Notes: generated by a model from the sequence alone, not told the origin. Positions 3,070 to 53,014 are shown, counted from the first letter of the stretch. The stretch: DNA of 64,000 bases from Candidatus Syntropharchaeum caldarium (GCA_001766815.1 LYOS01000002.1:39777-103776); one strand, 5' to 3'. Numbers and translations are program-made.

Positions 3070-3911
3070 GAAAAAAACCAGAAAGTGATCCGGATCTGAT
3101 CGCACAGGCAGCCCAGCTTGCGATGCTTCTTGAGGTATCTGCATCCCCAAAGGCTGGAAATGTTGATAGGTGCCACGACTACCCTGATACCAGGTATGAG
3201 GACTTTCTTGCATCCTCTGTCGCTGTATATCCTGTCTTTAGAAAAGCGGCATTAAAGGACACTGGGGTGGGAAAACTCATCTTTGAGGCGGTTGAAGCAA
3301 GTAAAAGGTGGCACACCGGCGGTAACACGCATTTTGGAGCGTTTATACTACTCATCCCACTTGTAATGGCAGGAGGGGTACAGGATCTTGCAAAAGAGAT
3401 TGTTAGAGGCACTGGGTGGCAGGATGCCATAGATTTCTACCGTGCATTCGCTATCGCAGGTGTAAGGGTTGGAAAGGTCAATGATCTCAATCTTGGTAGC
3501 CAGGAGTCTCTTGATCGAATAAGGGAGGAAAAAATTACGCTCTTTGATATATTCAAGATCTCATCATCTTACGATTCGGTATCTGCTGAGTGGATAAACG
3601 GCTTTGAACGATCATTCAAATACGCGTGGATTGTTGGCACCAATGTCCGCGAGTACGGGATGAACGACGGTATTGTCCTAACATTCATGCAACTACTTGC
3701 GGAATATCCTGATACATTCATCGCGATGAAATCTGGAAATGAAACCGCACTCGATATCTCAGCGACTGCCTCAAAACTTGCCTGTGAGTTTGATCTTGAT
3801 AAAATCAGGTCGTTCGATGAAGAACTCATTGAAAGAGGAATAAACCCTGGTGCCACGGCCGATATGATCATCGCATCCATATTTATAGCACTCATCAAGG
3901 GGTGGCTTTAG
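3066..3911 (+). CDS. triphosphoribosyl-dephospho-CoA synthase (CitG/MdcB) family protein
   Basis: 'SPKAGNVDR', 'GGNTHFGAFILL' and 'INPGATADMIIAS' resemble CitG family motifs. ATGA overlap with the radical SAM gene. Confidence 0.7.
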   Translation: MRKKPESDPDLIAQAAQLAMLLEVSASPKAGNVDRCHDYPDTRYEDFLASSVAVYPVFRKAALKDTGVGKLIFEAVEASKRWHTGGNTHFGAFILLIPLVMAGGVQDLAKEIVRGTGWQDAIDFYRAFAIAGVRVGKVNDLNLGSQESLDRIREEKITLFDIFKISSSYDSVSAEWINGFERSFKYAWIVGTNVREYGMNDGIVLTFMQLLAEYPDTFIAMKSGNETALDISATASKLACEFDLDKIRSFDEELIERGINPGATADMIIASIFIALIKGWL

Positions 3912-5948
3912 ATGCTGTATGATATCATCATCTGGTATCTTTTTTTCCTTTTAGCAGGGCTGATCGCGCTCCCGTTTGTTAAAGATATTGGGTATGCATC
4001 TTCAAAGGCTGTTGCCATTCTTGTTACAACTTATCTCACATTTATAACAGGTTATCTGTATTGCTATGATCTCATAACCGTTGTTACCTCTTTTCTTCTC
4101 CTTGCGACGATTGCTGCAGGATATATGATATATCGCAAGGATTTTAAGATTCAGTGGAAGGTTTTTATCGAGTTTGAACTGGTGTTTGCGGTCGCTTTTT
4201 TCATTTTCGCGCTGGTGCGTGCATTCTCCCCTGAGATCTACTTCACAGGTGGTGAGAAGCTTGGTGAGCTCGGATTTTTGAATGCGATCCTGAGATCGGG
4301 ATCCTTCCCACCGTACGATCCCTACTTTGGCGGTGAGCCGATGCAGTACTACTATTTTGGGCATCTGATCGTTGCAAACATCATAAAACTCACGGGTATA
4401 AGCCCTGAAGTAGGATTTAACCTTGCAACAGCCTCTCTTTTTGCCCTGAGTGTTCAGATTGCATACGGTCTCGGATTCAGGCTGAATATTCGTCGCGCAT
4501 ACGCTATGATAACCGTAGTCTTTCTTCTGATACTTGGAAATCTATCAGGTATCATCCAGTTTCTGCTTCAACATGCATCAGACCCATCTTCTGCCATCTA
4601 CTTCAACTACTGGTATGCATCGCGGATAATCCCGGATACGATCAATGAATTCCCGTACTTCAGCTTTCTGCATGGTGATCTGCACCCCCACATGATCGCG
4701 ATACCGTTTAAAATTATGCTCCTGACCCTCTTTCTACAACTTCTTTCTGAAAAAAAAGATAATACAGCTTTCGTAATTGCAGCTGGATTCTTCACAGGTT
4801 TTTTAGCACCACTTAACACCTGGGATTATCCTGTATTTTTATTGTTGCTTCTTATAATCCTATGGACTGGACGATACGGTCTTGATAAGATTGCTCTTTC
4901 GATATCAGCTGCCATAATCCCCTATCTACCGTTTCTCCTCTCAACCACAGGACGCGGAATCGGTTTTGTCACAGAACGAACAGAGCTTATCAACTTCTTT
5001 GTAATACATGGTTTATTTCTTTTCATACTCTTCTCATACCTCTTATTGAGGCTTGAGAGAAAATATCAGAACTATCTCATCATTATGATCCTTATTCTGC
5101 TTCCGATATCTTATCTCATACAGTTCCAGACACTATTTCTGCTACTGCCGCTCATCATCCTGCCGCTGTGGCTTCGATTCTGGGATGGTGGAGCAGATCA
5201 CGCCTTTATAGATATTCTCATTCTTGTCGGGGCTCTTATCGCGCTTGGTTGCGAACTCTTCTACGTCGATGATGCTTTCACTGGAAAAATTGAGCGCCTG
5301 AACACGGTATTCAAGCTCTACCTGAATGTATGGATCTTCTGGGCAATTGCATCTGCTTATGCACTCAGAAATATCCTCATGCAACCTGGAAGACATGGTA
5401 TGATGAGACGTATCTGGACGATCACACTTACGATACTTCTGATCTCAGCCTCGATCTATCCTGTTTTTGCAACATCGGGGAGATCTCATGCATTTGGGGT
5501 TAAACCAACGCTTGATGGCTTAGCATGGGCAAGAGATGAGTTTACATCTGATATGGATGCTCTTGATTGGATAAATAAGAACATAGATGGACATCCAGTA
5601 TTTCTAACCGTGCCTGCACAGGACTACAGGTGGGATTCGAGGGTTGCATCTGTAACAGGAGTTCCCATCATAATTGGATGGATGGGAGAGGAGATAATGT
5701 GGAGAGGGGATCGCGAAGAAGTTAACAGGAGATTGAAGGATGTATCAAAGGTGCTATCTTCAGATAAAATCGATTCTGAGGTGATAGCGATCCTTGAAGA
5801 TTACAATGTAAGTTATATCTACATAGGGGAGATTGAAAGGACGAAGTTTCCTGAGGGTGTTCTGAAGTTTGATGGCTGGAGTGGGTGCGAGGCTGTCTTT
5901 AAGAATGAGGGGGTTACAATCTTTGAGCTTCTGGATGAAAACGCTTAA
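3912..5948 (+). CDS. polytopic membrane protein of the Chlor_Arch_YYY / DUF2298 family
   Basis: 678 aa, many TM segments, diagnostic 'PMQYYYFGH' motif. Starts immediately after the citG-like stop. Confidence 0.7.
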   Translation: MLYDIIIWYLFFLLAGLIALPFVKDIGYASSKAVAILVTTYLTFITGYLYCYDLITVVTSFLLLATIAAGYMIYRKDFKIQWKVFIEFELVFAVAFFIFALVRAFSPEIYFTGGEKLGELGFLNAILRSGSFPPYDPYFGGEPMQYYYFGHLIVANIIKLTGISPEVGFNLATASLFALSVQIAYGLGFRLNIRRAYAMITVVFLLILGNLSGIIQFLLQHASDPSSAIYFNYWYASRIIPDTINEFPYFSFLHGDLHPHMIAIPFKIMLLTLFLQLLSEKKDNTAFVIAAGFFTGFLAPLNTWDYPVFLLLLLIILWTGRYGLDKIALSISAAIIPYLPFLLSTTGRGIGFVTERTELINFFVIHGLFLFILFSYLLLRLERKYQNYLIIMILILLPISYLIQFQTLFLLLPLIILPLWLRFWDGGADHAFIDILILVGALIALGCELFYVDDAFTGKIERLNTVFKLYLNVWIFWAIASAYALRNILMQPGRHGMMRRIWTITLTILLISASIYPVFATSGRSHAFGVKPTLDGLAWARDEFTSDMDALDWINKNIDGHPVFLTVPAQDYRWDSRVASVTGVPIIIGWMGEEIMWRGDREEVNRRLKDVSKVLSSDKIDSEVIAILEDYNVSYIYIGEIERTKFPEGVLKFDGWSGCEAVFKNEGVTIFELLDENA

Positions 5949-34646: not shown

Positions 34647-35381
34647 TTATGGGTAGGTATAACTTTCCACATAGGCGTTTTCGTAGCCAGACTCTGTCAC
34701 GTTGTCACCGAGTGCCTGGAAGTTATCGACTGTCCACTCGCCATCCTCATCCTCTTCGGCATCGAAATCAAGGACAACATTCTTCGTCCATGAGATGTTG
34801 ACACCAACGCGGGTATGACATCCAATGCATGCCTCGTTCGAGTCGATCATAAGGTCATCATCGATCGCCTGCTGGATGAATGCGTTGTGTGCGGCCTTCG
34901 TCCCATTTCTGCCACCGGCATCATAGGAGTACTGGTAAGGATCGTTTGTCTCATCGCCGTTGTAATCACCAACACCATCTGGCTGATCGAATCCACCCGC
35001 GTGTGGGTAACCACCGAGCCCATCATTTCCATACTCATGGCAGATCATACATGCGATCGTCTCTGCTGCGTGCGAGGTCGTACCTGGGGTTGAACCTGAG
35101 GTATCACCTGATGCAACACCTGTTGGCTTCTGCACCTGTGAGGAGTTCACCCTGTGACAGTCACACCCAGGGGATGCAAGGCCTTTGTGCACACCATTAT
35201 CAGAATCGATCATCTCTGCGTTGATATCGCCATGACACTTCACACAGGGTAGCTGGTTTCCATCATCACTCAGGTTATACCAGCTGTGCTGTCCACTGAA
35301 GAGTGCTGCTGTCTGTGGGAGTGCGAATATTCCGATTGCTACGATTGCAACCAGTAGCAGTCCAGTTGTATTCCTTCTCAT
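34647..35381 (-). CDS. membrane-anchored multihaem c-type cytochrome (3 CxxCH + 1 CxCH)
   Basis: N-terminal TM anchor. CVKCH, CMICH, CIGCH plus 'GCDCH'. GGAGGTGA 5 nt upstream. Paralogue of 42871..43566. Confidence 0.85.
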   Translation of the reverse strand: MRRNTTGLLLVAIVAIGIFALPQTAALFSGQHSWYNLSDDGNQLPCVKCHGDINAEMIDSDNGVHKGLASPGCDCHRVNSSQVQKPTGVASGDTSGSTPGTTSHAAETIACMICHEYGNDGLGGYPHAGGFDQPDGVGDYNGDETNDPYQYSYDAGGRNGTKAAHNAFIQQAIDDDLMIDSNEACIGCHTRVGVNISWTKNVVLDFDAEEDEDGEWTVDNFQALGDNVTESGYENAYVESYTYP

Positions 35382-37620: not shown

Positions 37621-39189
37621 TCAGATAATGCCACTTTTCAGTGCGTATTCGATGCCTGTGTCAGTATCTCCGGTGAAGATCGCCTTGCCCTTATCCATTA
37701 CCGTAACCCTGTCACACACGAGCCGTACAAACTCAAGGTCATGGCTCACGATAAGAAACGTGGTCTTATGTTCGTTGCGACGGTTAATAATAGAGTTGGT
37801 TATCTGGTACATTGTCATCTCATCCAGTGTGCCTGTTGGTTCATCCAGTATCATTATCTTGGGGTCCTTGAGGATAATCGATGCAAATATTATCCGATGC
37901 TTCTCTCCCTCGCTAAGCTCATCGGGATATCGTTTCAAAATTCCCTCAATTCGTTCTTCACTAAACCCAACAAGCTCAAGGACGTCATAAATTTTCTCCT
38001 CTAAGATCTCTTCCGGCACTCCTGGTACAAATCCCTGCATATTTCTGTAAACTGTCTGGTATGCGGATAGCCCATATTCCTGGTGAAGTATGGCGATCTT
38101 TTCTTTGACACGCCCCCTTTGTATGCCACGTTCACGCATATCCACACGTTCACCATCCAGTCGAACTGTGCAGACACCTTCAAATTCGGAACTGTCACCA
38201 TTGATAATTGTAACAAGTGTTGTCTTACCTGCACCGCTATGTCCCAGAATCCCGTGTATCTCGCCTTCATAAATATCGAGCGATACGCCATCCAGTGCTT
38301 TTATAACACCCTCATCCACCGTGAAGTATTCCCTGCGAAGATCTCTGCACTGAATTATTGGTTCACCTTCAAAGTTAACAACCTGTTTCTTCGACAGACG
38401 TCGTTCAGCGATGAAACGTTCCATTACCTTGCTTGTCTCTCCCTCAAAGACTGCCTTTCCTTCTATAAGCAATATCGATCGCGGGGCCACCTCAGGTATA
38501 TACGATGTCAGATGTGACGCGATGAACGTTGTTCGCTCTTTCGAGATCTCTTTTATCACATCATACATCTCTTCTGATGATTTGGGGTCAAGCGTTCCCG
38601 TAGGCTCATCAAGCAGAAGCACCATCGGATCTTTTGCGATCTGTCTTGCCATCACGACTCTTTGCTTCTCACCGCCGCTCAGGTCCCGTGCAATATGTTT
38701 GATCCTGTGTTCAAGTGAGACGATCTTCACGATCTCATGTGCCCGTTCCATACGTGCATCGATCGGATAATCAGAGCTATGCAGAGCTGCAAGCACATTC
38801 TCGATAACAGACCGCATCGAATAAATCCCGGTGGCTTCCTGAAACATGATCGCAACCCGCCGTTTTATCACATCGCGCATACCTTTATCAATCTCCCAGA
38901 AGTCAACCCGCTGGAGTTCCATCGCCGAACCACAGCGCGGGCATTCTGTGCGTGATGGAGTATCAACCCGCTCGCAATTCTCACAAAAGCGAATGTTGTA
39001 GTATATATGCCCGGCTGTTGGTCTATATTCCTCCATGCCGCGCAATGTGTACATTAGTGCGCTTTTTCCAGCTCCACTTGCTCCAATAACACCGATTATA
39101 TCGTTTTCTTCCACGCTCAGGTTTATATTATCGAGTATCTTGTTGCCTCCCTTTTCGATGGAAAGATTTTCTATCTCTATAATCTTCAT
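37621..39189 (-). CDS. atwA: methyl-coenzyme M reductase system component A2 (AtwA), double ABC ATPase
   Basis: Two ABC cassettes (Walker A 'GASGAGKSA' and 'GHSGAGKTT'; signatures 'LSGGEKQRV' and 'LSEGEKHRI'). Cys4 insertion 'CENCERVDTPSRTECPRCG' after the first P-loop. Track start 39207 is TTG; ATG 39189 gives the 'MKIIEIENL' start. Confidence 0.8.
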   Translation of the reverse strand: MKIIEIENLSIEKGGNKILDNINLSVEENDIIGVIGASGAGKSALMYTLRGMEEYRPTAGHIYYNIRFCENCERVDTPSRTECPRCGSAMELQRVDFWEIDKGMRDVIKRRVAIMFQEATGIYSMRSVIENVLAALHSSDYPIDARMERAHEIVKIVSLEHRIKHIARDLSGGEKQRVVMARQIAKDPMVLLLDEPTGTLDPKSSEEMYDVIKEISKERTTFIASHLTSYIPEVAPRSILLIEGKAVFEGETSKVMERFIAERRLSKKQVVNFEGEPIIQCRDLRREYFTVDEGVIKALDGVSLDIYEGEIHGILGHSGAGKTTLVTIINGDSSEFEGVCTVRLDGERVDMRERGIQRGRVKEKIAILHQEYGLSAYQTVYRNMQGFVPGVPEEILEEKIYDVLELVGFSEERIEGILKRYPDELSEGEKHRIIFASIILKDPKIMILDEPTGTLDEMTMYQITNSIINRRNEHKTTFLIVSHDLEFVRLVCDRVTVMDKGKAIFTGDTDTGIEYALKSGII

Positions 39190-39224
39190 AGACCCACTCC
39201 GTTGCAAACTTAAATCAAGGCTTA

Positions 39225-40004
39225 TTAATTCTTTTCTGTTTTTGCAGACAATGGCATGAGCGTAGAGGTTCTGTAATATAGATCATTTATACGCGCATAT
39301 TTTGCACCCCAGAACTCAACCACCTCTTCAACCGTGCCTGCTGTACCTGTGGCAGTATAGGTAACCTCCATCCCCTCCTCAATCTCTGGTGCTGTTTCGA
39401 TGGCTTTCTCTTCGCCAGACTCGACAAAGACGATTCGTTTTATTTCCTCAGTACTTCGCAGTGGAGTGATATGCCCCCTGATGACACCTGTGATAATACC
39501 AACAACCCTACCTTTTGTGAGTCTCTTCTCTGGTAGGGGGCGAACATACTTGGTATCAACCCCCTCACGTGCCAGATCCTCGTAATCGATTGGACACTGG
39601 CATATCACGATCGATGGCTTATCGAAGAGTTTGAGAAAGTAGATTTGCTTATAAATTATATGTCGTGCGACATTGCCGTGGTGAAATATGAGTAGTTTTG
39701 AACGTTCGATCCGTTCGCGCTCATCCTCTTCCAGTTTGAATTCAACCTTCACAAAATGCTGTTCCGCCTTGATACCTTTTCCCTTACGAAGGACAAGCAC
39801 CGATGCTTTGATCCCATACGCACGCAACCGCTGTGTTATATCACAGACTGGATATGGGATGTGTCGATCCGAAAAGTCCATCGCGATTATCAGTGCATCC
39901 TCGCCATACTCATCCGAGTGCGTGCCTCCACGCGCTATACCGTAACCAAGCCCCCCTCCAAACTTTGCCCTACAGTTGACATAGTGGGCCTTTCTGCCTA
40001 TCAT
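39225..40004 (-). CDS. mcrC: McrC-like protein (MCR operon protein C homologue) with C-terminal extension
   Basis: 'MIGRKAHYVNCRAKFGGGLGYGIARGG', 'YPVCDITQRLR', 'ASVLVLRKGKG', 'PSIVICQCPIDYEDLAREGV', 'TKGRVVGIITGVIRG' follow the McrC pattern. About 60 extra C-terminal residues. AGGTG upstream. Confidence 0.75.
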   Translation of the reverse strand: MIGRKAHYVNCRAKFGGGLGYGIARGGTHSDEYGEDALIIAMDFSDRHIPYPVCDITQRLRAYGIKASVLVLRKGKGIKAEQHFVKVEFKLEEDERERIERSKLLIFHHGNVARHIIYKQIYFLKLFDKPSIVICQCPIDYEDLAREGVDTKYVRPLPEKRLTKGRVVGIITGVIRGHITPLRSTEEIKRIVFVESGEEKAIETAPEIEEGMEVTYTATGTAGTVEEVVEFWGAKYARINDLYYRTSTLMPLSAKTEKN

Positions 40005-40018
40005 AAATCACACCTTTC

Positions 40019-40879
40019 TTATACAGATGGAACACTCAGCGGAAGTTCAATGATTATATCGTCCTGTGTGCCCCTCTTTATGCTGCCAAACTCACCGAGT
40101 TTACCAAAGTAAAATTCCATCTCTCCGAGTTTCTCTGCATATTCATCATAGGATGCGTTCACTCTGAGACCGCTCATTTTGAGTACCACGTTCACACCAA
40201 ACTTTGATTCAATCTCGGTTTTTATATAGGGATAGGTTGCAGGAACATCAGGTCGAAGGCTTCCGATGATCGAGATTACACTCTCCATAAATGCACCTAT
40301 TATCCGTTTATCATCAGGATCATCGAACATCGTTGGTATCCTTGTAATAGACGGGATGAAAATCAGCTCATCATCAGACTCAAGATCTGCATAGCCTGTC
40401 ACGATCACAGGTACATTAAGCCTTCTGCAGAGTTCCATCTTCTCACGGATACAGTGCTCAAAACATCCAAACATGAAGATCGCCAGATCGTGCTCCTCGA
40501 TCATCATCCGCTCTTCCCTCATCAGAATCGCCTTTCTGCCAACGCCTCTTGCAGGTGCGATTGTGTTCACCTTTGCGCCAGCCTGCCGCAGTGTCTCAAC
40601 CGTGCTGCAGTGTGGAAAGGGTGTGTGATGAAGATTAAATGAGGGGATGATCACCGCAACTTCGATACCATAGAGCGGTACAGTGATAACCCTTCCTGAA
40701 TGCTTACGGAGAGCTGCCCGTTTACGCAGAATGTTCACCGATTCATGATCTATCATCACATCAAATTCTGCAACACCACCCATCTGGTCTATGTTCAGGA
40801 CAAAACCGCCAAGATCCTCTATGAACTCAATTATTTCGTCTGATTCAAACGCATTTCCGATATATTTTAGCGGCATCAT
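40019..40879 (-). CDS. methanogenesis marker protein 7 (Mmp7)-like
   Basis: 'EFIEDLGGFVL', 'NLHHTPFPHCSTVETLRQAGAKVNTIAPARGVGRK', 'IEEHDLAIFMFGCFEHCIREK', 'NVPVIVTG' resemble the Mmp7/McrC-related pattern as I recall it. Confidence 0.6.
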   Translation of the reverse strand: MMPLKYIGNAFESDEIIEFIEDLGGFVLNIDQMGGVAEFDVMIDHESVNILRKRAALRKHSGRVITVPLYGIEVAVIIPSFNLHHTPFPHCSTVETLRQAGAKVNTIAPARGVGRKAILMREERMMIEEHDLAIFMFGCFEHCIREKMELCRRLNVPVIVTGYADLESDDELIFIPSITRIPTMFDDPDDKRIIGAFMESVISIIGSLRPDVPATYPYIKTEIESKFGVNVVLKMSGLRVNASYDEYAEKLGEMEFYFGKLGEFGSIKRGTQDDIIIELPLSVPSV

Positions 40880-40897
40880 TTTTATTCCACGCCGTAT

Positions 40898-42679
40898 TCA
40901 GCTCAGATGGAAATACCTGTATGCATCTCCCGTATCCTCAATCTCACCGCCTTTTGAGACAAAGTCGGCGTACTTTCGATTGACAAATTCATTACAGATA
41001 GTCTCAGGATCGCCTGTCATCAGAATTTCGCCACGGTGTATCAGCAGTGCCCGGTGTGCAAGCTCCTTCACCGCATCCAGTTGATGGCTCACGAGGATTA
41101 TTGTGAGGTTGTGCTCCTTGTTGAGGGTTTTTATTGCATTTATACATTTACGCAGCGAGATAGGATCGAGATCTCCGAAAGGCTCATCGAGCAAGAGGAC
41201 CTCTGGCTTCTCCGTCATGTGAAGAGCAAGCGCAACCCGTATCTGCTCACCTGCACTGAGTTCATATGTATAGTGATCCATGAGAGAAAGAGGAAGATCG
41301 AGCGCTTCAAATATGGGTTTCATCCGCTTTTTAGCTTCGTCTGCAGGTATCGTTGGGAATAACTTCCTCAGAATCCCTGGATCAAGTTTCAGCTCCCTGA
41401 GCATGTCTTTCATCTCATCTTCTGGCAGATCTGCAAGTCTATAAAGTACATCCAGCTTCACGTCACTTAGTCCCATTTCTCTCGCCCGTTCGACCACCTC
41501 AGGCAGGAATCGCACGTCCTTTAGCCCAAGTTTCTGCTCAAAGAGGTGCAGCACGATTTCATAGTGCGTGAGCGCAAACTCCTGATGTAACGTTGAGATG
41601 TTAAGACGCGCCTTTACAGCATCATAACCATAGGTACAGATATTTGTCCAGCGCTCTTCACCACCATCGTTGATCCTGTAGGTAACCTCACCAAACTGAG
41701 GAGGTTCAAGTCCTGCAAGCAACCTGATCAGTACTGTCTTTCCAGCAGCACATGGTCCAACGAGTGCAAGTATCTCGCCTTCGTAGATATCGAAGTTGAG
41801 ATTTTTCATCTGGATCGTCTCGATAAACTTTGCACCTGATGTGGTTATCTGGTAACGCTTCCAGAGGTTGGTGAGGCGCATCTTCGGCACTTCTCGTGGT
41901 ATCGATGGCTCAACGGGTTGATCGATCTTTGCAACAAACTTTTTAATGATCTCATCTGGTTTCCCCTCATCAACCACCTTTCCTTCCTCAATCCAGAGCA
42001 CCCTATCAGCGAGAGTTTCGTGTATTTCTGGCATATGAGAGACAAATACAACAGTAACACCAGCATTCTCATTTATTTTTTTTATCGCATCAAGCATCAT
42101 CCCTCGACCAACAGGATCTATCATGGTGGCTGGTTCATCTACAAGAAGAACACGTGGATTTGCTGCGAGCTGTCTCGCAAGCAGAACACACTGCTTCTCA
42201 CCGCCGCTGAGGATATTGTAGTAGTAATACTTCTTATCCAACATGCCAACAATATCAAGAATCTCGGAGGCCCGTTTGAAGAGTCGTTTATAGTCGTTTG
42301 AACCTGTTGTAGGTATCTCTTCAAAACCTGTCTCAAGCTTTCCCAGTTTTCGCATCACATTATTTATCACACTCTCAGGCCATAGTGCAAACGAACGTTG
42401 CAGATGCAGTGCGGTTATCTTCTGGAGTTCAAGCTGTTCATTGGAATTAGAGTCAGGTGTGAGTGTGATACCATCAACCCTTACAGATCCTTCTTTAAAT
42501 GATTCCACGCCCCTTAAAATTCGCAAGAGTGTGGTTTTTCCTGCACTGCTCCTTCCTAATATACCCAGAACTTCACCCTCATCGACTGAGAACGAGACGT
42601 TCTCAAGAGCAGTGTGTTCTTTCTCAATCTTTGAGATCTGATAAGTCTTCGTTAAATTTTCTACTTCGATGATCTTCAT
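40898..42679 (-). CDS. second component-A2-like double ABC ATPase (paralogue without Cys4 insertion)
   Basis: 'GILGRSSAGKTTLLRILRGVE' (A2-like first P-loop), 'LSGGEKQCVLLARQLA', second cassette 'GPCAAGKTVL' / 'LSAGEQIRV'. GGAGG upstream. First gene of the operon. Confidence 0.75.
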   Translation of the reverse strand: MKIIEVENLTKTYQISKIEKEHTALENVSFSVDEGEVLGILGRSSAGKTTLLRILRGVESFKEGSVRVDGITLTPDSNSNEQLELQKITALHLQRSFALWPESVINNVMRKLGKLETGFEEIPTTGSNDYKRLFKRASEILDIVGMLDKKYYYYNILSGGEKQCVLLARQLAANPRVLLVDEPATMIDPVGRGMMLDAIKKINENAGVTVVFVSHMPEIHETLADRVLWIEEGKVVDEGKPDEIIKKFVAKIDQPVEPSIPREVPKMRLTNLWKRYQITTSGAKFIETIQMKNLNFDIYEGEILALVGPCAAGKTVLIRLLAGLEPPQFGEVTYRINDGGEERWTNICTYGYDAVKARLNISTLHQEFALTHYEIVLHLFEQKLGLKDVRFLPEVVERAREMGLSDVKLDVLYRLADLPEDEMKDMLRELKLDPGILRKLFPTIPADEAKKRMKPIFEALDLPLSLMDHYTYELSAGEQIRVALALHMTEKPEVLLLDEPFGDLDPISLRKCINAIKTLNKEHNLTIILVSHQLDAVKELAHRALLIHRGEILMTGDPETICNEFVNRKYADFVSKGGEIEDTGDAYRYFHLS

Positions 42680-42870
42680 GTTAAAACCTCCTTAGAATCC
42701 TCAGAATCATCATAATCTTAACCTGTTCATCATATATAAGAAGATCTATTTTTGGATTGAGGAGGGTTAATCATTTAATTTTTCTAAAGAGCTGTCATGT
42801 CCACAACCTTTATATCTCGCACATGCGATAAGTTAATGTAAGGTAAAGAGTCAGAAATGATCAGCGAAAG
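42680..42870. promoter_or_regulatory. divergent promoter region between the MCR-activation operon and the cytochrome operon
   Basis: 191-nt AT-rich spacer. TATA-like 'TTTATATC' at 42809-42816 (+), 55 nt before ATG 42871. 'TTATATAT' on the minus strand at 42732-42739, about 55 nt before ATG 42679. Confidence 0.3.
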
Positions 42871-43566
42871 ATGAAAAAACACACACCGCTTCTGCTCATG
42901 ATCGCCGTACTTGCGATCGGTATATTCGCACTCCCCCAGAGCGTTGCGCTTTTCTCAGGTCAGCATTCATGGTATAATCTCACTCCACAGGGTAACGATG
43001 TACCCTGTGAAAAATGTCATGGCGACATCGCTTCAGAGATTGCATCAAGTGGTGCACACAAAAATATCGAGTGCGGCGGATGTCACAGAGCAGATGCAAG
43101 GGTTGGCTATGCCGGGGACTGGGAGGGGGATGTGGATCCAGGACAGGGTGCACACGCGGCATCGACTATTGAGTGTATGATCTGCCATGACAGGGGCACA
43201 AACTTCACACACTCCAATATCGGAAGTGATGAGTGTTCTGACTGTCACACCTCGCCTTTTGTGGCGCCTGGGGCAGGAGGCTTCAATCTGACTGATCCTT
43301 CTGTCTTGCCGTCTGATACCGGCACAAAAGCCGCACACATGCAGTTTGTCCATGACGCGATCAACGAGACGCTCATGGAGGGTGCAAACGAAGCCTGTAT
43401 AGCATGTCATACGCATGTGGGTGTCAACATCACATGGACGAAGAACGTGGTGCTCAACTTTGAAGCATCAGAGAATGAGACTGGAAGCTGGTCGATCCCT
43501 GAGTTTTCAGCAACAGGGGATAATGTGACAGAATCAAACTATACAAACACCTGGGTAAATACTTAA
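42871..43566 (+). CDS. membrane-anchored pentahaem c-type cytochrome
   Basis: N-terminal TM anchor. CEKCH, CGGCH, CMICH, CSDCH, CIACH. Paralogue of 34647..35381. Confidence 0.85.
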
Positions 43567-43579
43567 AAGGGGGGTTAAA

Positions 43580-46500
43580 ATGAATGAAGGAATGAAAAAG
43601 GTCAAAATCTTTATTCTCGTATTGCTTATGATCGCATCACCGTTTTCGATGCTTACTGCAGGTGCTGCTATCGATGGCTCAAAGCATGACTTCACGTTTG
43701 AGAGTGAACTTACGCCAAATGGTGCGTGTTCCGCCTGCCATGAGTGGCGTACCATGACGTGGGCACGAAACCTGAGTGAAGAGGAGGCTTATTTTAACCA
43801 GACAGAAGATCCAAACTACGTCCATGATCCTACCATAAAATGCTATGACTGTCACAGTGGCACTGCGGCAGACAATGATCCCAGTTACACGCTTTTTATC
43901 AATACAACACTTGGCAGATATATCCCGCAGGACGTTGCCTTTGATGCCAATATGAAGGGAAACGATCTATCCTATGACAGCTCACCCTCTGATGATGAGA
44001 CCGGATACTACGAGTCATCGACATCAGGCCACTACATAAAGACGAACGCAACAGGCCTGACGAATATTGAACCTGGTGATAAGCTCCCATGCACCGACTG
44101 TCATGAACCACACGAGACAGAACCCACAAATGAGGTCTTCATAAAAGGAAGCTCCGAATATCCACTTGGTGGAAAGGTTGTATCAAACTTAAAAGCAAGC
44201 ACAAACACCCGATCTGGTACTGGCACTGGACGTGAGATCTGTGCGGTATGTCATGGATACAGCGATTCAGGCATAGCTGTCAGGTTTGTTGATGTTAATC
44301 CCCTCTATGGCTCGACCGATAGGATCGTTCAGACCCCGTCAACGGTATCCCAGCATGCAGAGAATGATTCAACACCATGCACAGACTGCCACTCACATAG
44401 CACCCCGGCATCGTATTTTGTCGGAATCAGCAGCCACAACACCCACTTAACCGCCGAGTTTGGACCCAAAATATCCTCGTGCACAGGTGCCGATGGCTGT
44501 CACAGTGAGGGAAACTTCAGCCGCTTCAACGACAACCTCACACTCTCAGCGACTCATGCCTGCGATAACTGCCACAGCCCGAATGGAACATACAATGGTG
44601 TCACCCTTGCCAAGGCAAGCTGGGAAGAAGGCGTCTACAACGGCACAGACTTAAAATCAAGCAAGGAGAAGTGGTGTGCAAGCTGTCATGATAAAGAACC
44701 TGCCAGCTCTATGGGGAATGGAAGCGGTATAAACGCCCCGAATATCGTCGGGATGAATCTAAGCGGTAGCTGGCAGAGCCCCGTCGCTATTATAACAAAT
44801 CAGACGGAAAACGTCAGTGATGCAACAAACCTGCTGGATGGTGACGTTGAGACCGGTGCGAGTGTGAGTGGGGCATCCCAGATCGTCTTTGATCTTGGAG
44901 AGAGTACAGAAGTCTCCCATATCAGGCTTTACACATCTGCCAGTTCCACGGTCAAGTGGGAGGTGTACGGGAGCAATGATCTTTCAAACTGGACGAGAAT
45001 ACTCTATGGTCAGGATGTGATCTTTTCCGCTCCTGCATGGCTTACAGGTGAAGATGAGGGATGGGATGAGAGCAGGGTTGACAGGATCATACCTGTGAGA
45101 TACATCAAGCTCTACAAGAGGAGTCCGTGGCCCGTGGGGAGTGGTTCTCAGCGTGAGTTTGAGTATAAAGCAGATATACGGTATGGATACTATACCACCG
45201 GTCACAAGATTGCCTGCACCAACTGCCACAATAGAAGTAGCGCGCATATCGATGGAACCTCACAGACCTACAACACAACCCTTGATAACTATCAGACAGG
45301 TTTCAGGCTGAAATATCTTGAGGTTGAGAATGAAACCGTCCCCTCACTTGAGATACCAAGAGTCGACTGTAACTGGGGTGATTATCCAAAAACCTCAAAC
45401 GACTTTGCACTCTGTTTCTCATGCCACAACAAGTATAACCTCCTCGGGGATGCGAGTGGTACAGGCGACTACCATAAGGATCCACCCCAGACAAACTTCA
45501 GGAACAACACCACAAACGCCCACCTCATCCATCTGCAGGGAAGGGGATACTGTGGAAACAATCCTGACTGGGACTCAGACTGGAACGGCACAGCAGACTC
45601 ACCACAGAGTTGCACCGCGTGTCACAATGTTCATGGCTCTCCTGCTCCTGCGATGACAAGACACGGAGAACTTGTGAGTATCAACGATACCCTTGAGAAG
45701 GCTCCCCTCCTGAACCTGAAGTACATAAACGCAGACGGAGAGCTTGATCATAATCTCTCAGATGCCACCCAGAGTATCGGCGGAAGGACACAGTTCTATG
45801 GTGCAGGACCCGGAAACGTTGCGAAGAATAAGGTGTGTAACATGTGCCACAATGATCAGATTACCTATTATCGCACACCAGTACCTCCCACCGTAACCTG
45901 TGGTAATGGATCAGGAACAGGAGGCTGCCACAGCCCCACCGCATACTCTTCCTCTGCAGCAGGCAGCCACAATACTCATCTAACCGCACCCAGGGGACCA
46001 AACATAACATCCTGCACAGGTGCTGATGGCTGCCACAAAGGCAACCACACCGGTCTCTTCAACGATGGTTTACCGCTATCAACAACCCACAGATGTGATA
46101 ACTGCCACAGCCCGAACGGGACATACGATGGTGTGAATGACTCCACAATCGGAGCAAAACCCAACTGGGAAAATGGAGTGTACAACAATTCCACGACATT
46201 AAAGTCAGGCAAAGAGAAGTGGTGTGCAGGATGCCATGATGACGAACCGGCGTATAGTAAGGCAGAGTACAGCGAGGTCATCGTGGATAACACCGAAGCT
46301 TCTTTTGCTGGTTCATGGAGTACATCCTCTCACTCAACCGATTATGGAAGCAACTACAGATACAATGGTGCAGGTTCAGGCACTGAAACAGCAACGTGGA
46401 CACCTAACCTGCCAGAATCTGGTAATTACTCGGTCTATGCATGGTGGCCCATATATGTTTCAGGAAGAGCAACGAATGCACCGTACACCGTGTACTACAG

Positions 46501-49500
46501 CAGCGGGTCTGAGACGGTAAGGGTGAACCATAAAGCAGGAGGGGGTGGCTGGAACTACATCGGCACATGGAACTTCTCTGCTGGAACATCAGGTTACGTT
46601 GTGCTCAGTGATGATGCCGATGGAATTGTAATGGCTGATGCCATCAGATTTGTTAAAGGCGGGAATGCCACGTACGCACCCAATATCATCGGTGATAATA
46701 CAAGCTATGGGTTCTATGCAACAGGTCATGGTCGAAGCGGTGTTGTGGATTGCCTGTCCTGTCATGATTCAGATAAAACCCATATCGATGGAATTCAGCG
46801 AACGTATGAAGCAAATGAGACAACAGGTGATGCGATCACACCCTACAATAACAGCTACCGTTTAAAGGATCTTGATGGGTTGCCAGCGATGGTAATGCCA
46901 AGAAAAACAACATCCACATTTAATATGCAGGCCTACTGGCGGGATTTTAACCTCTGTTTTGACTGTCACAACAGGTTTGAGGTGCTGGGTGAAACATCAT
47001 CGGATATCAGTAACACCAACTTCTGGAATAATGATTCAAGTATCTCAAACTCACACTGGCTCCATCTCGGGATAGATAGCAAGCACTTTGACTCTGATTA
47101 TGACAGTTCTGCAGACTCACGTGAGAGCTGCATCGCATGCCACAACGTACACGGTTCGCCAACAGGACCGATGATAAGACATGGAGAACTTATAAGCTAT
47201 CCAAGTACAGCGAACAAGGAGCCTGCGCATAATTTCTACTATCTTCTCCCTGGAGATGGTTCAGCCACTGCCAGGTTTACACCCACACTTGCAGGCGGAA
47301 CATATGATATCTATGCATGGTGGAGCTCGCACTCAAACCGTGCGACAAATGCAAAGTATATAATATACCATGATGGTGGTAGCGCTGAGGTAATCGTCAA
47401 TCAGGAGGAGAACGGCTCACAGTGGAACCTCCTTGGCGAGTACAATATTACAACTTCAAACGGCACGGTCGTTCTGACATCAGATGGCGCCAACGAGTAC
47501 ATCATGGCAGACGGAATCCAGTGGAACAGAACAGATGGCGGAGATACTGTCTATGTTGATGAACCTGATGCCACCTATACTGGAAGCTGGACTGTGGAGA
47601 CCTCAAACCCAGACAAATATTACGGAGATAGCACGAGATACTACTATGCACCCATCAGGAATGCGACTGCAAACGTGAATAAGAGTACTGGCGGCACCTT
47701 CTATGTAAGCGGTGTAATCACTGCAAATCATCTCTGTCAGATGTGTCATAGCAACGTCCAGTACAACAGAGACCCGTATACCGGACCAAGAGTTCCATAC
47801 AGTGATGCAACCCCTGATAACATCTCAAACTTTGAGAGTAACACTGTAACATTCACGGCTTTCGTTACCGATGTGGATGAGAACATAGCAAATGTTACCA
47901 TCGATCTCTCAAGTTTTGGTGGTAACGTTAGCCAGAGGATGTACGATGACGGAACCCACGGTGATACCAAGGCAAATGATGGTGTGTATAGCTACCAGTT
48001 CACAGTGCCTGCAGGTGTTGATGATGGTCCAAGGAGTATCACAGTCACCGCAACAGACGATGATGGTAATAGCGGTGAAGGTCTGATCGATCTTACCGTC
48101 TATCAGCCAGGCGCACTGATCATCGATGATGAAGATGCAAGCTTCACCGGAACATGGGGAGAATCCACGGCAGACGAGACGACGTATGGAACAGGATACC
48201 GCTGGCATGCTTCAGGCACCGGGAGCAATACAGCAACGTGGAGTGTCAACATCACAACCGCCGGTAACTACACCGTCTACGCACGATGGGTTACAGGAAG
48301 CAACCGTGCTACAGATGCACCCTACACGATTAACTATGAAGGAGGCAACGAAACAGTAAGGGTTTCACAGCGGATAAAAGGAGGAAAGTGGAACCGTCTT
48401 GGCAACTACTACTTTGACGTCGGCGAGTACTCGGTCGTTCTCACAGATGATGCTGATAACTACGTTATAGCTGATGCGATAAAGCTTGAATCTGAAGCCC
48501 CTCCAGCTTACCACCCATGGCCAATCGCCGACAATCCCGATGCTGAATACAACGGAACAGGATGGTATACTGGAACAGCCGATAGCGGTTATTATGGCTC
48601 AGACTTCTACTACCATGCCTCAGGCACAGGAGAAAATACCGCAACATGGACACTCGCAGTTCCAGAAGCTGGAAAGTACGATGTGTACGCATGGTGGGCA
48701 GACGGCTCAAACCGTGCAACCAATGCACCCTATATGATTAACTACGAAGGAGGCAGTGAAACAGTAAGGGTTTCACAGAAAATAAATGGAGGAAAGTGGA
48801 ACCTGCTTGGGACATATTCATTCAATGCAGGTAACTATTCAATAGTACTCAGTGACGATGCAGATGGATTCATCATTGCCGATGCAGTGAAGTTTGAGCT
48901 TAACCAATCTGTATGGCTCACCCCTTCCTCAATCCAGTGCACAAACCTCACCAACGCTTCACTCCTGATCGATAACAGCACATCAACTGCCAACGCGCTT
49001 GATACCGGAGATGAACAGTATGTGGTCTTTGATCTTGGTGCAAGATACACCGTTCCATCGATCAAGATGTACACTGATGGTAGCGGCAACTACACATGGG
49101 ATGTCTATATGGGGGATAACATATCTGATCCTGCCTGTTGCAACCATTCAAGCTGGGGCACGCCTGTCCTTGAGAACTGGACTCCCTCTACTTCGGGGTG
49201 GAACGAGGTCAACCTGACAACACCCGCCACAGCGAGATACATAAAGCTCATGCGAAACGATACAGGTGATGATCTTGCCGCAGACAGCCTCTATGAGTTC
49301 ATGTTCGACCCACCAACGGCAACGCTCACCTTTGAACTCCACTCATACGCTGATATGCATATCTATGACCCGGAGGATCGCCATCTCGGGATGAACTACA
49401 CGACAGGCGAGATCGAGAACCAAATTCCCGGAGCAGTATATGACTTCGGTGATGTCCAGACTGCTACCCTGCCAAAGCTTGCAGTGGGGGAGTACAGGGT

Positions 49501-50482
49501 GATACTCAAAGGAACGGGGACAGGTGGATATGAACTGACCGTCACGGGCGAGGATGATGATGGTGTACTCACCAGTGAGACCGTTGCTGGAAATATCACA
49601 GCAGGTGAGATCCATGATGCAACCGCAGCGGTTAACACCACAGACATCACAAACATCACGATAGCACTCGAAGATGAGCCAGAGCCAACGATCAATGCAG
49701 ACGGAGTTGATAATGTCACACTCGCTGATCTCTATCCTGATATCGATGAGGTTGATATCGACCCCCTCGATCCTGAGACGATCGATACCACAGGGATGCC
49801 AGATATTGCCATTCACACCGCCTACATGGTCAACGCCTCAGGAGATGGTGAGTACACACTGAGGTTTGAGGATGTGGAGAACGCTGAGCTTATCACTGCA
49901 GTCTATAAGATCAATGAAGAGGGTGAATGGATCGAGCTTCCAGCAGTGATCAATGGATCGAGAGTTGAGGTTACGATGGAAGCAGGTGATCCACCGGTTA
50001 TTTTTGCATATCCAGCACCAGAAACACCGACTACAGATGACACAAACACCGCATCAACAGGTGGTAGTGGTGGTGGGGGCGGCGGAGGTGCAGGCCCGAA
50101 GGACTCAGATGGTGATGGTGTACCCGATCGTCAGGAGCAGCTTGATGGGACAGATCCTCTCAACCCTGATACAGATCATGATGGACTGAACGACTTTGAG
50201 GAGCGTGTGGCAGGAACAGACCCGAACAATCCTGATACCGATGGTGACGGAATAATCGATGGTGAAGATCCGGATCCAGCGATTATGAACTTCACACAGA
50301 AGGTGAAGAAGACCTTCTCTGATATTTCAGATACCATCTTTAGATCGGGTTCAGAGAATGCGCCGGTACCATCTTCAGAGAGCGGTGCAGAAGAGAAGAC
50401 GCCAGGGTTTGGAAGCTTTGCCTGGATCGTAGCAGTTCTTGCTATGGGGTATCTGGTAAGAAGGGAAAAAGTTGAAAAATAG
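43580..50482 (+). CDS. giant secreted multihaem c-type cytochrome with discoidin-like and golvesin-C-like domains, TSP3 repeats and PGF-CTERM anchor
   Basis: GGGGGG 6 nt upstream and a signal peptide. 17 CxxCH, 2x CTGADGCH and 1x [11 protein letters not shown], all within about the first 1390 aa. Poly-Gly linker, 'DSDGDGVPD...DTDHDGLND...[14 protein letters not shown]', and terminal '[27 protein letters not shown]'. Confidence 0.9.
48134..48900 (+). repeat. tandem duplication (period 408 nt) inside the giant cytochrome gene
   Basis: AACCGTGC at 48302 recurs at 48710. The GAAACAGTAAGGGTTTCACAG...GGAGGAAAGTGGAAC block is nearly identical in both units. Each unit encodes one about 136-aa golvesin-C-like domain. 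Confidence 0.8.
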
Positions 50483-50503: not shown

Positions 50504-51814
50504 TTAAAATATCTGCTGTGGAGGAGTGTTAGCTCCTCCCGGTGTTGTATTCTCAAAGATTGCAAAGTCGTTGCTATCAACGTCTGTATCCATGCCATCG
50601 GGGTATCTGCCTGCAGACGCACCATCTTCTGGTGCCTCAGCATTGTCTGAAACGTCGCCATCATCGAAGTCACCGTATGTAACTCTATCGATCACATTCC
50701 CGCCATTTTTCAGGATGATGGTATCTCCGCCATTGTTGAGTCCGAACGAGAAATCAGTGGACTTGTTCAGCAGCAAGAACCCATTTGCAGGTATTGTTTT
50801 TCCGTTTAGACTTGCAGGTGAAGCAGTGTTATCCTCGATCGTCCAGTCATCAAGCGAAATATCCTCGTCCATCAGGTTGTAGAGTTCGATCCATTCTGAA
50901 TCACCTGGTAAAGGATCTGAAAGAAACTCATTCACAACAACCTTCGGGACAGCATCACCCGCTTCGATCGTAAATGTCCCATCAACCACCCTATGTGTGA
51001 TCTCATCCACACCGTCTGTGAGTGATATAACCGTAAGATCGAGTGGGCTTGTGTCACCAATAGCCCCAACTGCTTCAAAGGTAATCTGAGCAAAGACCAC
51101 ATCGCCTGTAAGGCTCGTTGGGAAGTTGAGGGCTGTGTACTGGATAGATCCAGCGCTGTTGTTGATATCTCTATATAGCGGGAAGTTGAACTCGCCATCG
51201 GCAACATCAAGCACCTGCACGACATCTGGGTCGAAGTTCAGGATGATGTTTGCTCCCAGTCCCTGGTAGAGGTTCTCGATCATGATCGGAACTGTGGTAG
51301 TCTCACCTGCTTCACAGCTTAGATTCTCTATCGATACGATCGTATCAAGCACGGTAAATGTCCCGTCAACCACTGTATGCGTGATCTCATCCATGCCGTC
51401 TGTGAGTGATGTAACCGTAAGATCGAGCGGGCTTGTGTCACCACCCTCACCAACTGCCTCAAAAGTTACCTCTGCAAAGACCACATCGCCTGTAAGGCTC
51501 GTTGGGAAGTTGAATGCCGCGTACTGCACATATCCTGCCTCATTATCGATCTGGCTATAAACCGGGAAGTTGAAATCACTTCCATCTATATCAAGCACCT
51601 GCACGACATCTGGGTCGAAGTTCAGGATGATATTTGCTCCCAGTCCGCCATCAAGATTCTTGATTATGATTGGAACGGTCACACTCTCGCCTTTGCCAGC
51701 AGCCACATCCTCGATCGAGATGACCGTCTCTTCGTTTGCAGCTGCTGTAATTACAAGAGCTGATGCTACAATGAGTATGGCAACCACAGATGCAGCCAGT
51801 TTATGCCTCATCAT
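50504..51814 (-). CDS. secreted protein with two cohesin domains and a lamin-tail (LTD) domain
   Basis: Signal peptide. Two 128-aa units 'GE..TVPI.I.NL..GLGANIILNFDPDVVQVLD...LTGDVVFA..TFEAVG..GDTSPLDLTV.SLTDG.DEITH.VVDGTFT'. Then 'VVVNEFLSDP..DSEWIELYN...ISLDDWTIED....GGDTIILKNGGNVIDRVTYG'. Confidence 0.75.
   Translation of the reverse strand: MMRHKLAASVVAILIVASALVITAAANEETVISIEDVAAGKGESVTVPIIIKNLDGGLGANIILNFDPDVVQVLDIDGSDFNFPVYSQIDNEAGYVQYAAFNFPTSLTGDVVFAEVTFEAVGEGGDTSPLDLTVTSLTDGMDEITHTVVDGTFTVLDTIVSIENLSCEAGETTTVPIMIENLYQGLGANIILNFDPDVVQVLDVADGEFNFPLYRDINNSAGSIQYTALNFPTSLTGDVVFAQITFEAVGAIGDTSPLDLTVISLTDGVDEITHRVVDGTFTIEAGDAVPKVVVNEFLSDPLPGDSEWIELYNLMDEDISLDDWTIEDNTASPASLNGKTIPANGFLLLNKSTDFSFGLNNGGDTIILKNGGNVIDRVTYGDFDDGDVSDNAEAPEDGASAGRYPDGMDTDVDSNDFAIFENTTPGGANTPPQQIF
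50960..51727 (-). repeat. tandem duplication (period 384 nt) = the two cohesin modules
   Basis: CCGTAAGATCGAG at 51031 recurs at 51415. Long near-identical nucleotide stretches occur in both units. Confidence 0.8.
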
Positions 51815-51825: not shown

Positions 51826-52737
51826 TCAGCGAAGCAGTTCATAGCCAGCAATCCCGTTAATATGTGATGCCAGATAGACCGCATCGAGCAGGTTGACAAC
51901 ACCGCTGCCATCAACGTCTGCAATTCTCTCGTTCAGGTCATATCCAGGGACCCCGAGTGCATAGCATCCAAGATACACAACGTCATCCTCATCCACATCA
52001 CCATCATCATCGACATCGCCGTTCTTTTTCACAGTGAGCTCAACACTGACCGATGTCTCTGAGAGACCGGGTGCATTTGTTGCGTTGACTGGCAGGAGAT
52101 ACGTACCTGGTGTGGTTCCATCACTTGCATTTGTTACAATTGTGTAAACACCTCCGCCAGTATCAGTCATCACTGCTTCACTATCTCCACCTATCTGAGA
52201 TAGATCGATCGTAACCGAATCGATAGCGCAGATATCGGTGACAGTAACAGATAGCTCTGCTTCTTCTCCCCAGAGAGGGGTATCATCCGTATCGTCAGGG
52301 ATTATCGCAGGATTTGCAGATGGATCTGTCACAAGTGGTGGTGCAACTCCGGTCAGATCAACTTTTCTCGGTGGCTGCATGCGCCCCCATTCTGCAGTCT
52401 CCTGTGCAGTCATCACCCTTCCATCAGGTAGCGTTATCACGAATGTAATTATCTTTCCACGATCATATAGCGTGCCTGTAACCGCCAGATAATTGAGATT
52501 GTTTCCATATTCTCCTTCAATACCTACTGTTGTAGTTCCTCTGAGTTCACCATCGATATACGCCTCTATGATTGTATCTGTGGGCGCGTCAACACCGTTA
52601 ACGCTCACATTTCCCCAGAATTTATTTGGTAGTGCTGGAGGAGGGGAAACCGCTGTTGCTGCTATCACACCAAGCAATAAGAGCAGGCTAATAATAAGAA
52701 TGCCTCCAGTTACCTTTTTCGTTACTTCTTTTTGCAT
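51826..52737 (-). CDS. secreted dockerin-domain protein
   Basis: Signal peptide 'MQKEVTKKVTGGILIISLLLLLGVIAATAV'. C-terminal dockerin with two Ca-binding loops 'DVDDDGDVDEDD' and 'DVDGSGVVNLLD'. ATG 52737 follows GGAGG by 7 nt (track start 52797 less likely). 11 nt upstream of the cohesin gene. Confidence 0.7.
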   Translation of the reverse strand: MQKEVTKKVTGGILIISLLLLLGVIAATAVSPPPALPNKFWGNVSVNGVDAPTDTIIEAYIDGELRGTTTVGIEGEYGNNLNYLAVTGTLYDRGKIITFVITLPDGRVMTAQETAEWGRMQPPRKVDLTGVAPPLVTDPSANPAIIPDDTDDTPLWGEEAELSVTVTDICAIDSVTIDLSQIGGDSEAVMTDTGGGVYTIVTNASDGTTPGTYLLPVNATNAPGLSETSVSVELTVKKNGDVDDDGDVDEDDVVYLGCYALGVPGYDLNERIADVDGSGVVNLLDAVYLASHINGIAGYELLR

Positions 52738-53014
52738 ACACATGCCTCCATTCCTCGTGGTGGCCAACCTACATCTCTTCAAAAGCAGTCGCATCAAAAT
52801 GACAAAATGCCATAATTATTTGACATTTCTTGTACTGTTGGACTGCTATATGACCACCAGAAGCGCATCATCGTTTATACTATTTAAAACTATCGATCTC
52901 AAATATCGTTGTTCTGATGTGAATTTGACAGATGAATAAAAATACAAAAAGAACAAATAAGTCAATCATGGAAGTAATGATAAATTTAAATTGATAAGAC
53001 CCTGAACTGGATTA

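Follow-up and report, generated by a model that had tools for sequence, protein, structure and literature searches.

A 64,000-nucleotide stretch of DNA from Candidatus Syntropharchaeum caldarium (GCA_001766815.1, LYOS01000002.1:39777-103776; hereafter the window, in whose numbering all positions are given) carries on its plus strand, at 43580-50482, one continuous open reading frame (ORF) for a giant multihaem c-type cytochrome of 2300 residues. We consider it likely that this protein is a secreted cytochrome with 20 haem motifs in which two old subfamilies of one seven-haem module were fused or recombined, that each of the two units received its inserted non-haem domain independently, and that the whole would serve as an electron conduit at the cell surface, the last being a role that we infer. 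An earlier note on this DNA, made from the sequence alone, had described two collinear haem units and explained them by duplication plus replacement of the inserted domain; the units were readily recovered, and their origin by duplication and swap was not. The parts of the gene, in which A, B and T denote the first three haems, the next three and the terminal haem of a unit, are as follows.

43580..50482, plus strand: giant multihaem c-type cytochrome gene, 2300 residues, 20 haem motifs
43580..44395, plus strand: signal peptide (residues 1-30) and N-terminal five-haem module, haems at residues 50, 88, 171, 221 and 267, read from the sequence
44396..45889, plus strand: unit I (residues 273-770), heptahaem, from self-match, end-to-end homologue alignment and domain map
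44396-44779, plus strand: A1 of unit I, three haems including one CX5CH
44780-45160, plus strand: F5/8-type-C insert of unit I (residues 401-527)
45176-45736, plus strand: B1 of unit I, three haems
45737-45889, plus strand: terminal haem T1 of unit I
45890..47794, plus strand: unit II (residues 771-1405), linker CX8CH haem and heptahaem unit
45890-46270, plus strand: A2 of unit II
46274-46666, plus strand: Golvesin_C insert of unit II (residues 899-1029)
46694-47224, plus strand: B2 of unit II
47225-47554, plus strand: second Golvesin_C of unit II (residues 1216-1325), between haems 6 and 7
47651-47794, plus strand: terminal haem T2 of unit II
47810..48112, plus strand: non-haem region with choice-of-anchor-X-like motif (residues 1411-1511; NCBIfam NF041940, E 2e-10)
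48113..48904, plus strand: two more Golvesin_C domains (residues 1512-1640 and 1649-1775)
48920..49300, plus strand: second F5/8-type-C domain (residues 1781-1907), about 30% identical to the copy in unit I
49301..50089, plus strand: region without haem motifs (residues 1908-2170), conserved in the homologues L039p and P0003
50102..50242, plus strand: bacterial thrombospondin-type-3 (calcium-binding) repeats (Pfam PF18884, E 6e-10), an internal repeat in self-comparison
50387..50479, plus strand: PGF-CTERM-like tail, with PGF motif, hydrophobic helix and basic end seen in the sequence
46135..48913, plus strand: cassette differing between close strains (end of A2, Golvesin_C, B2, Golvesin_C, T2, the anchor-X-like region, two Golvesin_C)

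The haem motifs, 17 of them CxxCH, two CX5CH (both CTGADGCH) and one CX8CH, all fall in the first 1390 residues, with five in the N-terminal module, seven in unit I, one in the linker and seven in unit II. With E 0.01 as the limit, Pfam matched six families along the whole protein; Cytochrome_C7, Cytochrom_c3_2 and Paired_CXXCH_1 were above their cut-offs, and the N-terminus is signal-like. The N-terminal five-haem module is common to P0003-P0006, P0008-P0010 and other homologues at 35-67% identity, and residues 1908-2170 had no family match in Pfam or NCBIfam-type profile scans. The protein is secreted and probably anchored by a lipid or a helix.

The collinearity of the two units proved to be extensive. 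In a self-alignment, a check that the earlier note had proposed, chunked BLAST queries run against a masked copy of the protein gave two matches reaching far beyond the CxxCH motifs, one between residues 270-400 and 783-915 (56% identity, E 1e-39) and one between residues 535-716 and 1043-1222 (40% identity, E 3e-27); overall, the units are about 36-41% identical. To the description in the note we add that each unit closes with a seventh haem, CNMCH at residue 753 and CQMCH at residue 1386. A hidden Markov model (HMM) of the tail, built only from stand-alone homologues, scored 91 bits at residues 714-767 and 19 bits (E 6e-8) at residues 1365-1399, with all remaining haem motifs at 3.6 bits or less. 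At the nucleotide level the units are approximately 70% identical over 294 nucleotides, so nothing in the unit pair is recent.

The inserted domains are those that the note had named, discoidin-like in unit I and golvesin-C-like in unit II. Insert I matched Pfam PF22633 (F5/8 type C, NedA-like; 30.5 bits, cut-off 27.8) and, by phmmer, the CBM32 structure 4a42 (E 0.003). The predicted local distance difference test score (pLDDT) of its AlphaFold2 model was 70-88, and the best Foldseek matches were CBM32/discoidin structures (E ~1e-6, probability 1.0). We assign it to the CBM32-like beta-sandwich domains of F5/8 type C; its carbohydrate binding is predicted. Insert II is a Golvesin_C domain (PF25275), a family that scored 419.5 bits over its four copies in the protein against a cut-off of 31.6; the second copy, also in unit II, is an addition to the earlier description. 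Insert II further matched the C-terminal domain of xanthan lyase 6f2p (residues 905-1038; E 3e-24). With four Golvesin_C and two F5/8 domains, the protein holds six beta-sandwich modules of carbohydrate-binding type. Thus the note's view of a conserved haem scaffold with a differing non-haem insert holds, on the evidence of the self-match and, as described below, of a strain allele and the variety of inserts across the family.

Conservation within the units is not limited to the haem motifs. Seven non-motif histidines per unit are invariant or nearly so (H27, H30, H152, H166, H258, H261 and H295 in family alignment numbering), and the same histidines are conserved in the alignment with stand-alone homologues. 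Together with the 20 haem motifs, they point to a bis-His electron-transfer chain and not to a catalytic site.

A phylogeny of the two units against their orthologues, which the earlier note had likewise called for, separated them. We built a neighbour-joining tree of 125 units on the A and B match columns with inserts removed (298 columns, 200 bootstraps). All F5/8 units formed one clade in 141/200 bootstraps, the bacterial F5/8 units in 199/200 and the Golvesin-associated units in 178/200; unit II joined the Archaeoglobus homologue L039p in 200/200, and units I and II were never sisters in 200 bootstraps. With the B part alone, B1 grouped with F5/8-type units in 200/200. Sequence identities agreed with this placement: B1 is 65-68% identical to F5/8-type units, its nearest relatives, versus about 40% to B2, and B2 is nearest to L039p at 89%. 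These results suggest that units I and II are not a local duplicate pair but old paralogues, each belonging to its own differentiated subfamily of one haem module.

The positions of the inserts led to a similar conclusion. Units that lack an insert have between haems 3 and 4 a linker of 43-75 residues with the pattern WCxxCHDxxPAxxxGVxAPN[IV]xGDxxxYGYYxTGH...CxxCH. The APN[IV]xG motif lies before the insert in 6/6 F5/8 units shown and after the insert in 7/7 Golvesin units shown, and the two entry sites are about ten residues apart. Because the sites differ relative to APNxxG, F5/8 and Golvesin_C appear to have been inserted independently, with no replacement of one by the other. Furthermore, most units have no insert, and these fall outside both clades, which makes two independent insertions the simplest reading. 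The ancestral unit would have had no insert, and F5/8 and Golvesin_C would each have entered the same 45-residue inter-haem linker separately.

We mapped HMMs of A, of B (three haems each), of T and of the two insert types on 329 homologues and 26 locus-translated proteins. The A-B junction was insert-less in 209 cases, held F5/8 in 76, at least one Golvesin_C in 31 and something else in 9; among the scored units, 107/161 had no insert. Three of the other inserts are CBM_5_12 pairs inside the A half (P0125, P0238, P0321), and in another three an unassigned module of about 160 residues occupies the Golvesin site (P0230, P0307, P0326). P0197 has F5/8 in both its units. Apart from the A-B junction, three Golvesin_C domains stand between B and T in P0201. 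Searched exhaustively with HMMER, unit I returned 592 clusters (50% identity) at E<=1e-3 and 199 at E<=1e-30. The heptahaem unit is one widespread haem module, with about 590 clusters at 50% identity.

Many of these relatives are small proteins. About 30 stand-alone proteins of 510-550 residues align with unit I end to end, insert included, at 44-54% identity; in BLAST a single segment covers residues 24-508 of 513 at 44-53% identity, and in the stand-alone proteins the alignment runs from just past their signal peptide to their last residues, with the final CxMCHND..Y.RTP. Their source names include 'discoidin domain-containing protein [Desulfobulbus sp.]' and 'cytochrome c3 family protein' (Thermodesulfobacteriota, Deltaproteobacteria), and in a genome scan the stand-alone forms were found mostly in metagenome-assembled genomes (MAGs) of Desulfobulbaceae. 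The same scan placed a form of the F5/8 unit with an N-terminal module in Methanosarcinaceae MAGs, including ANME-3 HMMV2 of the anaerobic methanotrophic (ANME) archaea. Stand-alone discoidin heptahaem cytochromes such as HEB51075.1 and MBI5559566.1 resemble unit I in the seven haem motifs, the F5/8 site and the C-terminal CxMCHND..Y.RTP, but differ from it in having their own signal peptide, CxxCH where unit I has CX5CH, and another A type. In the account that we favour, unit I from the insert onwards would belong to this subfamily, whose members stand alone in Desulfobulbaceae and further bacteria and have an N-terminal module in ANME-3.

Two-unit proteins were found in other organisms as well. 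L008p (from a 'bacterium' MAG, isolate MAG299), P0195 and L033p share the order A-F58-B-T-A-GOL-B-GOL-T (F58, F5/8; GOL, Golvesin_C) followed by Golvesin_C copies, and query residues 284-1773 align with L008p in one segment at 54% identity over 1544 residues. In L005p, L007p, L010p-L012p, L035p, P0194, P0198 and P0038, an F5/8 unit precedes a unit that has no insert. In MAG299 (L010, 10579-13367), the genes that come after the tandem cytochrome gene encode both subunits, small and large, of a periplasmic NiFeSe-type hydrogenase. We also considered whether faulty assembly had joined two cytochrome genes into the two-unit arrangement. The repetitive nature of the gene is all that speaks for this, whereas the same arrangement stands in the closed long-read GB37 genome, in GB50, in independent metagenome contigs and in homologues of other phyla, and the reading frame is unbroken; we regard the chance of an artefact as negligible.

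Unit II with everything downstream has a relative of its own. Query residues 670-2143 match L039p, from Archaeoglobus sp. JdFR-22, at 74% amino acid identity and 77% nucleotide identity over 4.1 kb; the modules of this protein run N, A, GOL, B, GOL, T, GOL, GOL, F58, and unit I is missing. The same one-unit plan was found in a Methanophagales MAG (L076), P0003 and P0004. The Archaeoglobus (L039) and Methanophagales (L076, P0003) giant cytochromes thus share module order and C-terminal region with the query but have a single unit versus its two, and unit II together with all that follows it would be an orthologue of the one-unit giant cytochrome of the Archaeoglobus MAG. Position by position, L039 (MTMJ01000046.1) 770-4824 is 77% identical in nucleotides to window 45962-50025. 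This similarity suggests that the giant cytochrome passed between thermophilic archaea fairly recently: for Archaeoglobi and a relative of Methanosarcinales, 77% seems higher than vertical descent would leave, the expected distance being our own judgement.

These comparisons bear directly on the reading offered by the earlier note, in-gene tandem duplication of one haem supermodule after which the insert of one copy was replaced. The units are collinear and significantly similar, as this reading would have it, and their A parts are alike: A1 and A2 are 54% identical over HMM match columns, 56-62% by BLAST and up to 77% in 30-column sliding windows, A1 is closer to A2 than to the A parts of the F5/8 subfamily, and the CX5CH motif SCTGADGCH is common to A1 and A2 and absent from that subfamily. 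The likeness of A1 and A2 is, however, the sole evidence for local duplication. For the B, T and insert parts the reading is already contradicted: B1 is far nearer to F5/8-type units than to B2, the units are never sisters, the same tandem exists in distant organisms, the inserts occupy different linker sites while most units have none, and the unit-to-unit nucleotide identity is only 70%. We therefore consider duplication and swap improbable. Of the modular evolution that the note proposed, the homology of the units and the modularity stand; local duplication plus swap does not.

Comparison with close strains showed that the gene varies as modules. Two loci, L001 and L003, are 96-98% identical in nucleotides to the window over 42797-46134 and 48914-50468, and between these a 1.0-kb segment without nucleotide similarity replaces window 46135-48913 (2.8 kb). 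The breakpoint falls at residue 852, inside A2. In the resulting protein of 1707 residues (P0002), unit II is insert-less and 60% identical to P0005/P0006; it has zero Golvesin_C and yet again 20 haem motifs. Genes flanking the shared part differ on both sides, and only the upstream pentahaem cytochrome gene and the giant gene are shared (window 42797-50468), which looks like a two-gene block that moves or recombines as a cassette; at the ends of this block no direct or inverted repeats were found. Upstream, L001 and L003 carry a second, diverged copy of the small cytochrome gene (75-80% nucleotide identity). L003 (JAOQII010000027.1) is titled Candidatus Syntrophoarchaeum sp. though its gene is 96-98% identical in nucleotides to the GoM-Arc1 gene; either the record was wrongly binned or labelled, or the gene was transferred very recently.

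The best database match to the giant cytochrome, at 95% identity, was P0001, annotated Ca. Methanoperedenaceae archaeon GB50, and a copy in the closed GB37 genome (L004) has 95% nucleotide identity. We take the GB37 and GB50 genomes to be those of GoM-Arc1 / Ca. Ethanoperedens thermophilum, which are ethane oxidisers. The GB50 (L002, LR991654.1, 8667-15331) and GB37 copy is homologous to window 43620-48904, and its neighbours are argG and DDE transposase fragments. Its signal peptide is a different one, and the protein ends at residue 1776, without the second F5/8 domain, the stalk and the anchor. It is a translocated copy. Ratios of nonsynonymous to synonymous divergence (dN/dS) against the strain copies were <1 for every module, mostly 0.03-0.34 (small counts), and, with the same small counts per module, the inserts showed no sign of positive selection. 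Synonymous divergence along the gene ranged from 0.02 to 0.31, a tenfold spread. The GB50 copy (FHEFKHOI_00149, 5331 nucleotides) has been recorded at ~250-270 reads per kilobase per million (RPKM) (Table S3, PMC7175092). The gene is functional, as all modules are under purifying selection and the GB50 copy is transcribed. Taken together, these comparisons indicate a mosaic gene that keeps recombining.

Several points weigh against the account that we favour. The tree is a neighbour-joining tree on 298 columns, in which the F5/8 clade has 70% support and the place of unit I beside the bacterial F5/8 units 56%. Several of the MAGs with the tandem are labelled only 'bacterium', their domain being assigned from record titles and one hydrogenase neighbourhood. 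The PGF-CTERM-like tail shows the three elements to be expected of an archaeal PGF-CTERM anchor but gave only a weak HMM match (E 0.009, tail of TIGR04281). AlphaFold2 on unit I (31 aligned sequences) reached a mean pLDDT of 48, with the haem parts unreliable and only the F5/8 insert confident, so that Foldseek returned only CBM32/discoidin matches. The GB50 transcript is moderate, far under those of the small cytochromes (14,800 RPKM) (PMC7175092). Finally, the A and B parts of unit I have different affinities: with the A part alone, A1 grouped with the A of L039p in 158/200 bootstraps (79%) and never with F5/8-type A parts. The history was not a simple fusion.

As A1 and B1 group differently, unit I is itself a mosaic, its A part either converted or descended from a resident archaeal A. 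This can be put more strongly, as a chimera that arose from within the archaeal lineage: the resident A of a one-unit giant cytochrome, like that of L039p, would have been duplicated or converted, and a segment of F5/8, B and T from an F5/8-type protein recombined in between, so that local duplication of A and acquisition of foreign sequence would both have occurred. The opposed groupings of A1 and B1 agree with such a history, as does the A of L039p, which is A1-like in the middle and A2-like at the 3' end, and the strain breakpoint at residue 852 lies likewise within A2. Set against this, the A part is short (131 columns) and conserved, which makes its tree weak; L008p and P0195 hold the full tandem already, so the fusion may predate the archaeal copy; and gene conversion between A1 and A2 would yield the same pattern. 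We regard the chimera as a genuine possibility, although not the probable one, and retain the fusion or recombination of two old subfamilies as our reading.

With respect to function, the haems would form an electron path outward from the cell surface, and the resulting conduit would probably take electrons from ethane oxidation towards a sulfate-reducing partner. The adjacent upstream pentahaem cytochrome may be the electron donor to the giant cytochrome, and through its beta-sandwich modules the wire may attach to glycans, whether those of the S-layer, the matrix or the partner. The extracellular electron-transfer role is inferred from sequence and is consistent with what has been reported of related organisms. 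Ca. Ethanoperedens lacks a reductive pathway of its own and has been proposed to hand its electrons over to Ca. Desulfofervidus via cytochromes (PMC7175092). For ANME archaea, giant surface cytochromes have been put forward as the conduit of direct interspecies electron transfer (PMC9012536).

A different role is suggested by the non-haem content: the protein could be mainly an adhesin or matrix organiser, or an extracellular redox enzyme whose substrate is a mineral or is bound to polysaccharide, and not a partner conduit. The six carbohydrate-binding-like modules, the calcium-binding thrombospondin-type-3 repeats and the neighbouring cohesin and dockerin genes (see below) would suit such a role, as would the moderate transcript level and the occurrence of stand-alone relatives in many non-syntrophic bacteria. 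The 20 haem motifs and conserved non-motif histidines suggest a bis-His electron-transfer chain instead, and the haem count is unchanged when the lectin-like modules are lost; we think this role unlikely as the main one. The conduit, then, remains our reading of the function.

Discoidin domains have their N- and C-termini together, at the end opposite the binding loops. With adjacent termini, an inserted copy would present its loops away from the host chain. The earlier note had suggested that the haem chain acts as a constant wire and the inserts as variable binding modules, and the P0002 allele, with the same haem count and other lectin-like content, fits this idea at the population level. 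A bolder version is that the heptahaem unit represents a widespread, undescribed class of 'lectin-cytochrome', in which CBM32-like, Golvesin_C and CBM5/12 modules sit in loops of a haem wire and cassette exchange, between strains and between archaea and bacteria, sets which glycans and hence which partner or matrix are bound; this we offer as a speculation that is rather doubtful at present.

The genes around the giant cytochrome gene are the following.

37621-42679, minus strand: MCR-associated (methyl-coenzyme M reductase) cluster with component A2-like ABC ATPase, methanogenesis marker 7, McrC homologue and a second double ABC ATPase
42871..43566, plus strand: upstream 231-residue pentahaem cytochrome with N-terminal hydrophobic anchor or signal, five CxxCH motifs
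50504-51814, minus strand: protein with two cohesin domains and a lamin tail domain, directly downstream
51826-52797, minus strand: protein with a C-terminal dockerin

The pentahaem protein matches Pfam Cytochrom_c3_2 and c7, and its matches to NrfH and HmcA are weak. The cohesin and dockerin pair may be a surface scaffold adjoining the cytochrome, and ANME genomes are rich in proteins of both kinds (PMC9012536). Scores of the MCR-associated proteins are far under the NCBIfam equivalog cut-offs (e.g. A2, 291 bits versus 517), so these genes are divergent, as might be expected for an alkyl-coenzyme M reductase lineage. In addition, a 244-residue ORF with three CxxCH motifs lies at 34650-35381 on the minus strand.

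Giant surface cytochromes are the proposed route by which alkane- and methane-oxidising archaea give electrons to sulfate reducers, and the locus bears on how such proteins are built, anchored and targeted. The recurrent seven-haem block described here also exists as a small stand-alone bacterial protein, which would be much easier to express and to solve structurally than an archaeal one of 2300 residues. Domains resembling sugar-binding modules entered defined loops of this block several times, and close strains hold the haem count while exchanging the non-haem modules, which makes the role of non-haem domains in giant cytochromes directly testable. Furthermore, the locus records gene flow of electron-conduit modules among Archaeoglobi, relatives of Methanosarcinales and bacteria. 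In full-text searches of the literature, we found no paper that pairs a multihaem cytochrome with discoidin or golvesin domains, and no functional study surfaced.

Among known systems, MtrC/OmcA-type decahaem cytochromes and OmcS/OmcZ-type bacterial cytochromes are likewise extracellular multihaem electron carriers, but they have no significant sequence relationship to the giant cytochrome, and a porin partner or filament formation is without evidence here. Matches to MtrC/MtrF domain II/IV and OmcS in Pfam and PDB were faint (E 0.03-0.1), and when the PDB was searched by sequence, both with the protein itself and with a 17-unit profile, the haem parts had no relative of solved structure; the best match (E 3e-4) was 9yuq_N, an unrelated cytochrome of 218 residues.

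The ANME cytochromes are closer in kind. Types A, B and C have been defined by S-layer, peptidase-M6-like or pectin-lyase-like domains, in a survey that explicitly excluded GoM-Arc1 (Chadwick et al. 2022, PMC9012536). The giant cytochrome resembles them in its size, in having at least 20 haem motifs with non-canonical CXnCH forms, in its sugar-binding-type domains and in its putative C-terminal membrane anchor. No S-layer (DUF1608), peptidase-M6-like or pectin-lyase domain was present in the Pfam scan of the whole protein, however; it lacks the hallmark of types A and B, an S-layer DUF1608 domain with a haem in the linker, and differs from type C, which is pectin-lyase-like with no C-terminal helix, in that it has a C-terminal hydrophobic helix. 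In place of the ANME domains it carries F5/8 type C and Golvesin_C, set inside the haem units and not beside them.

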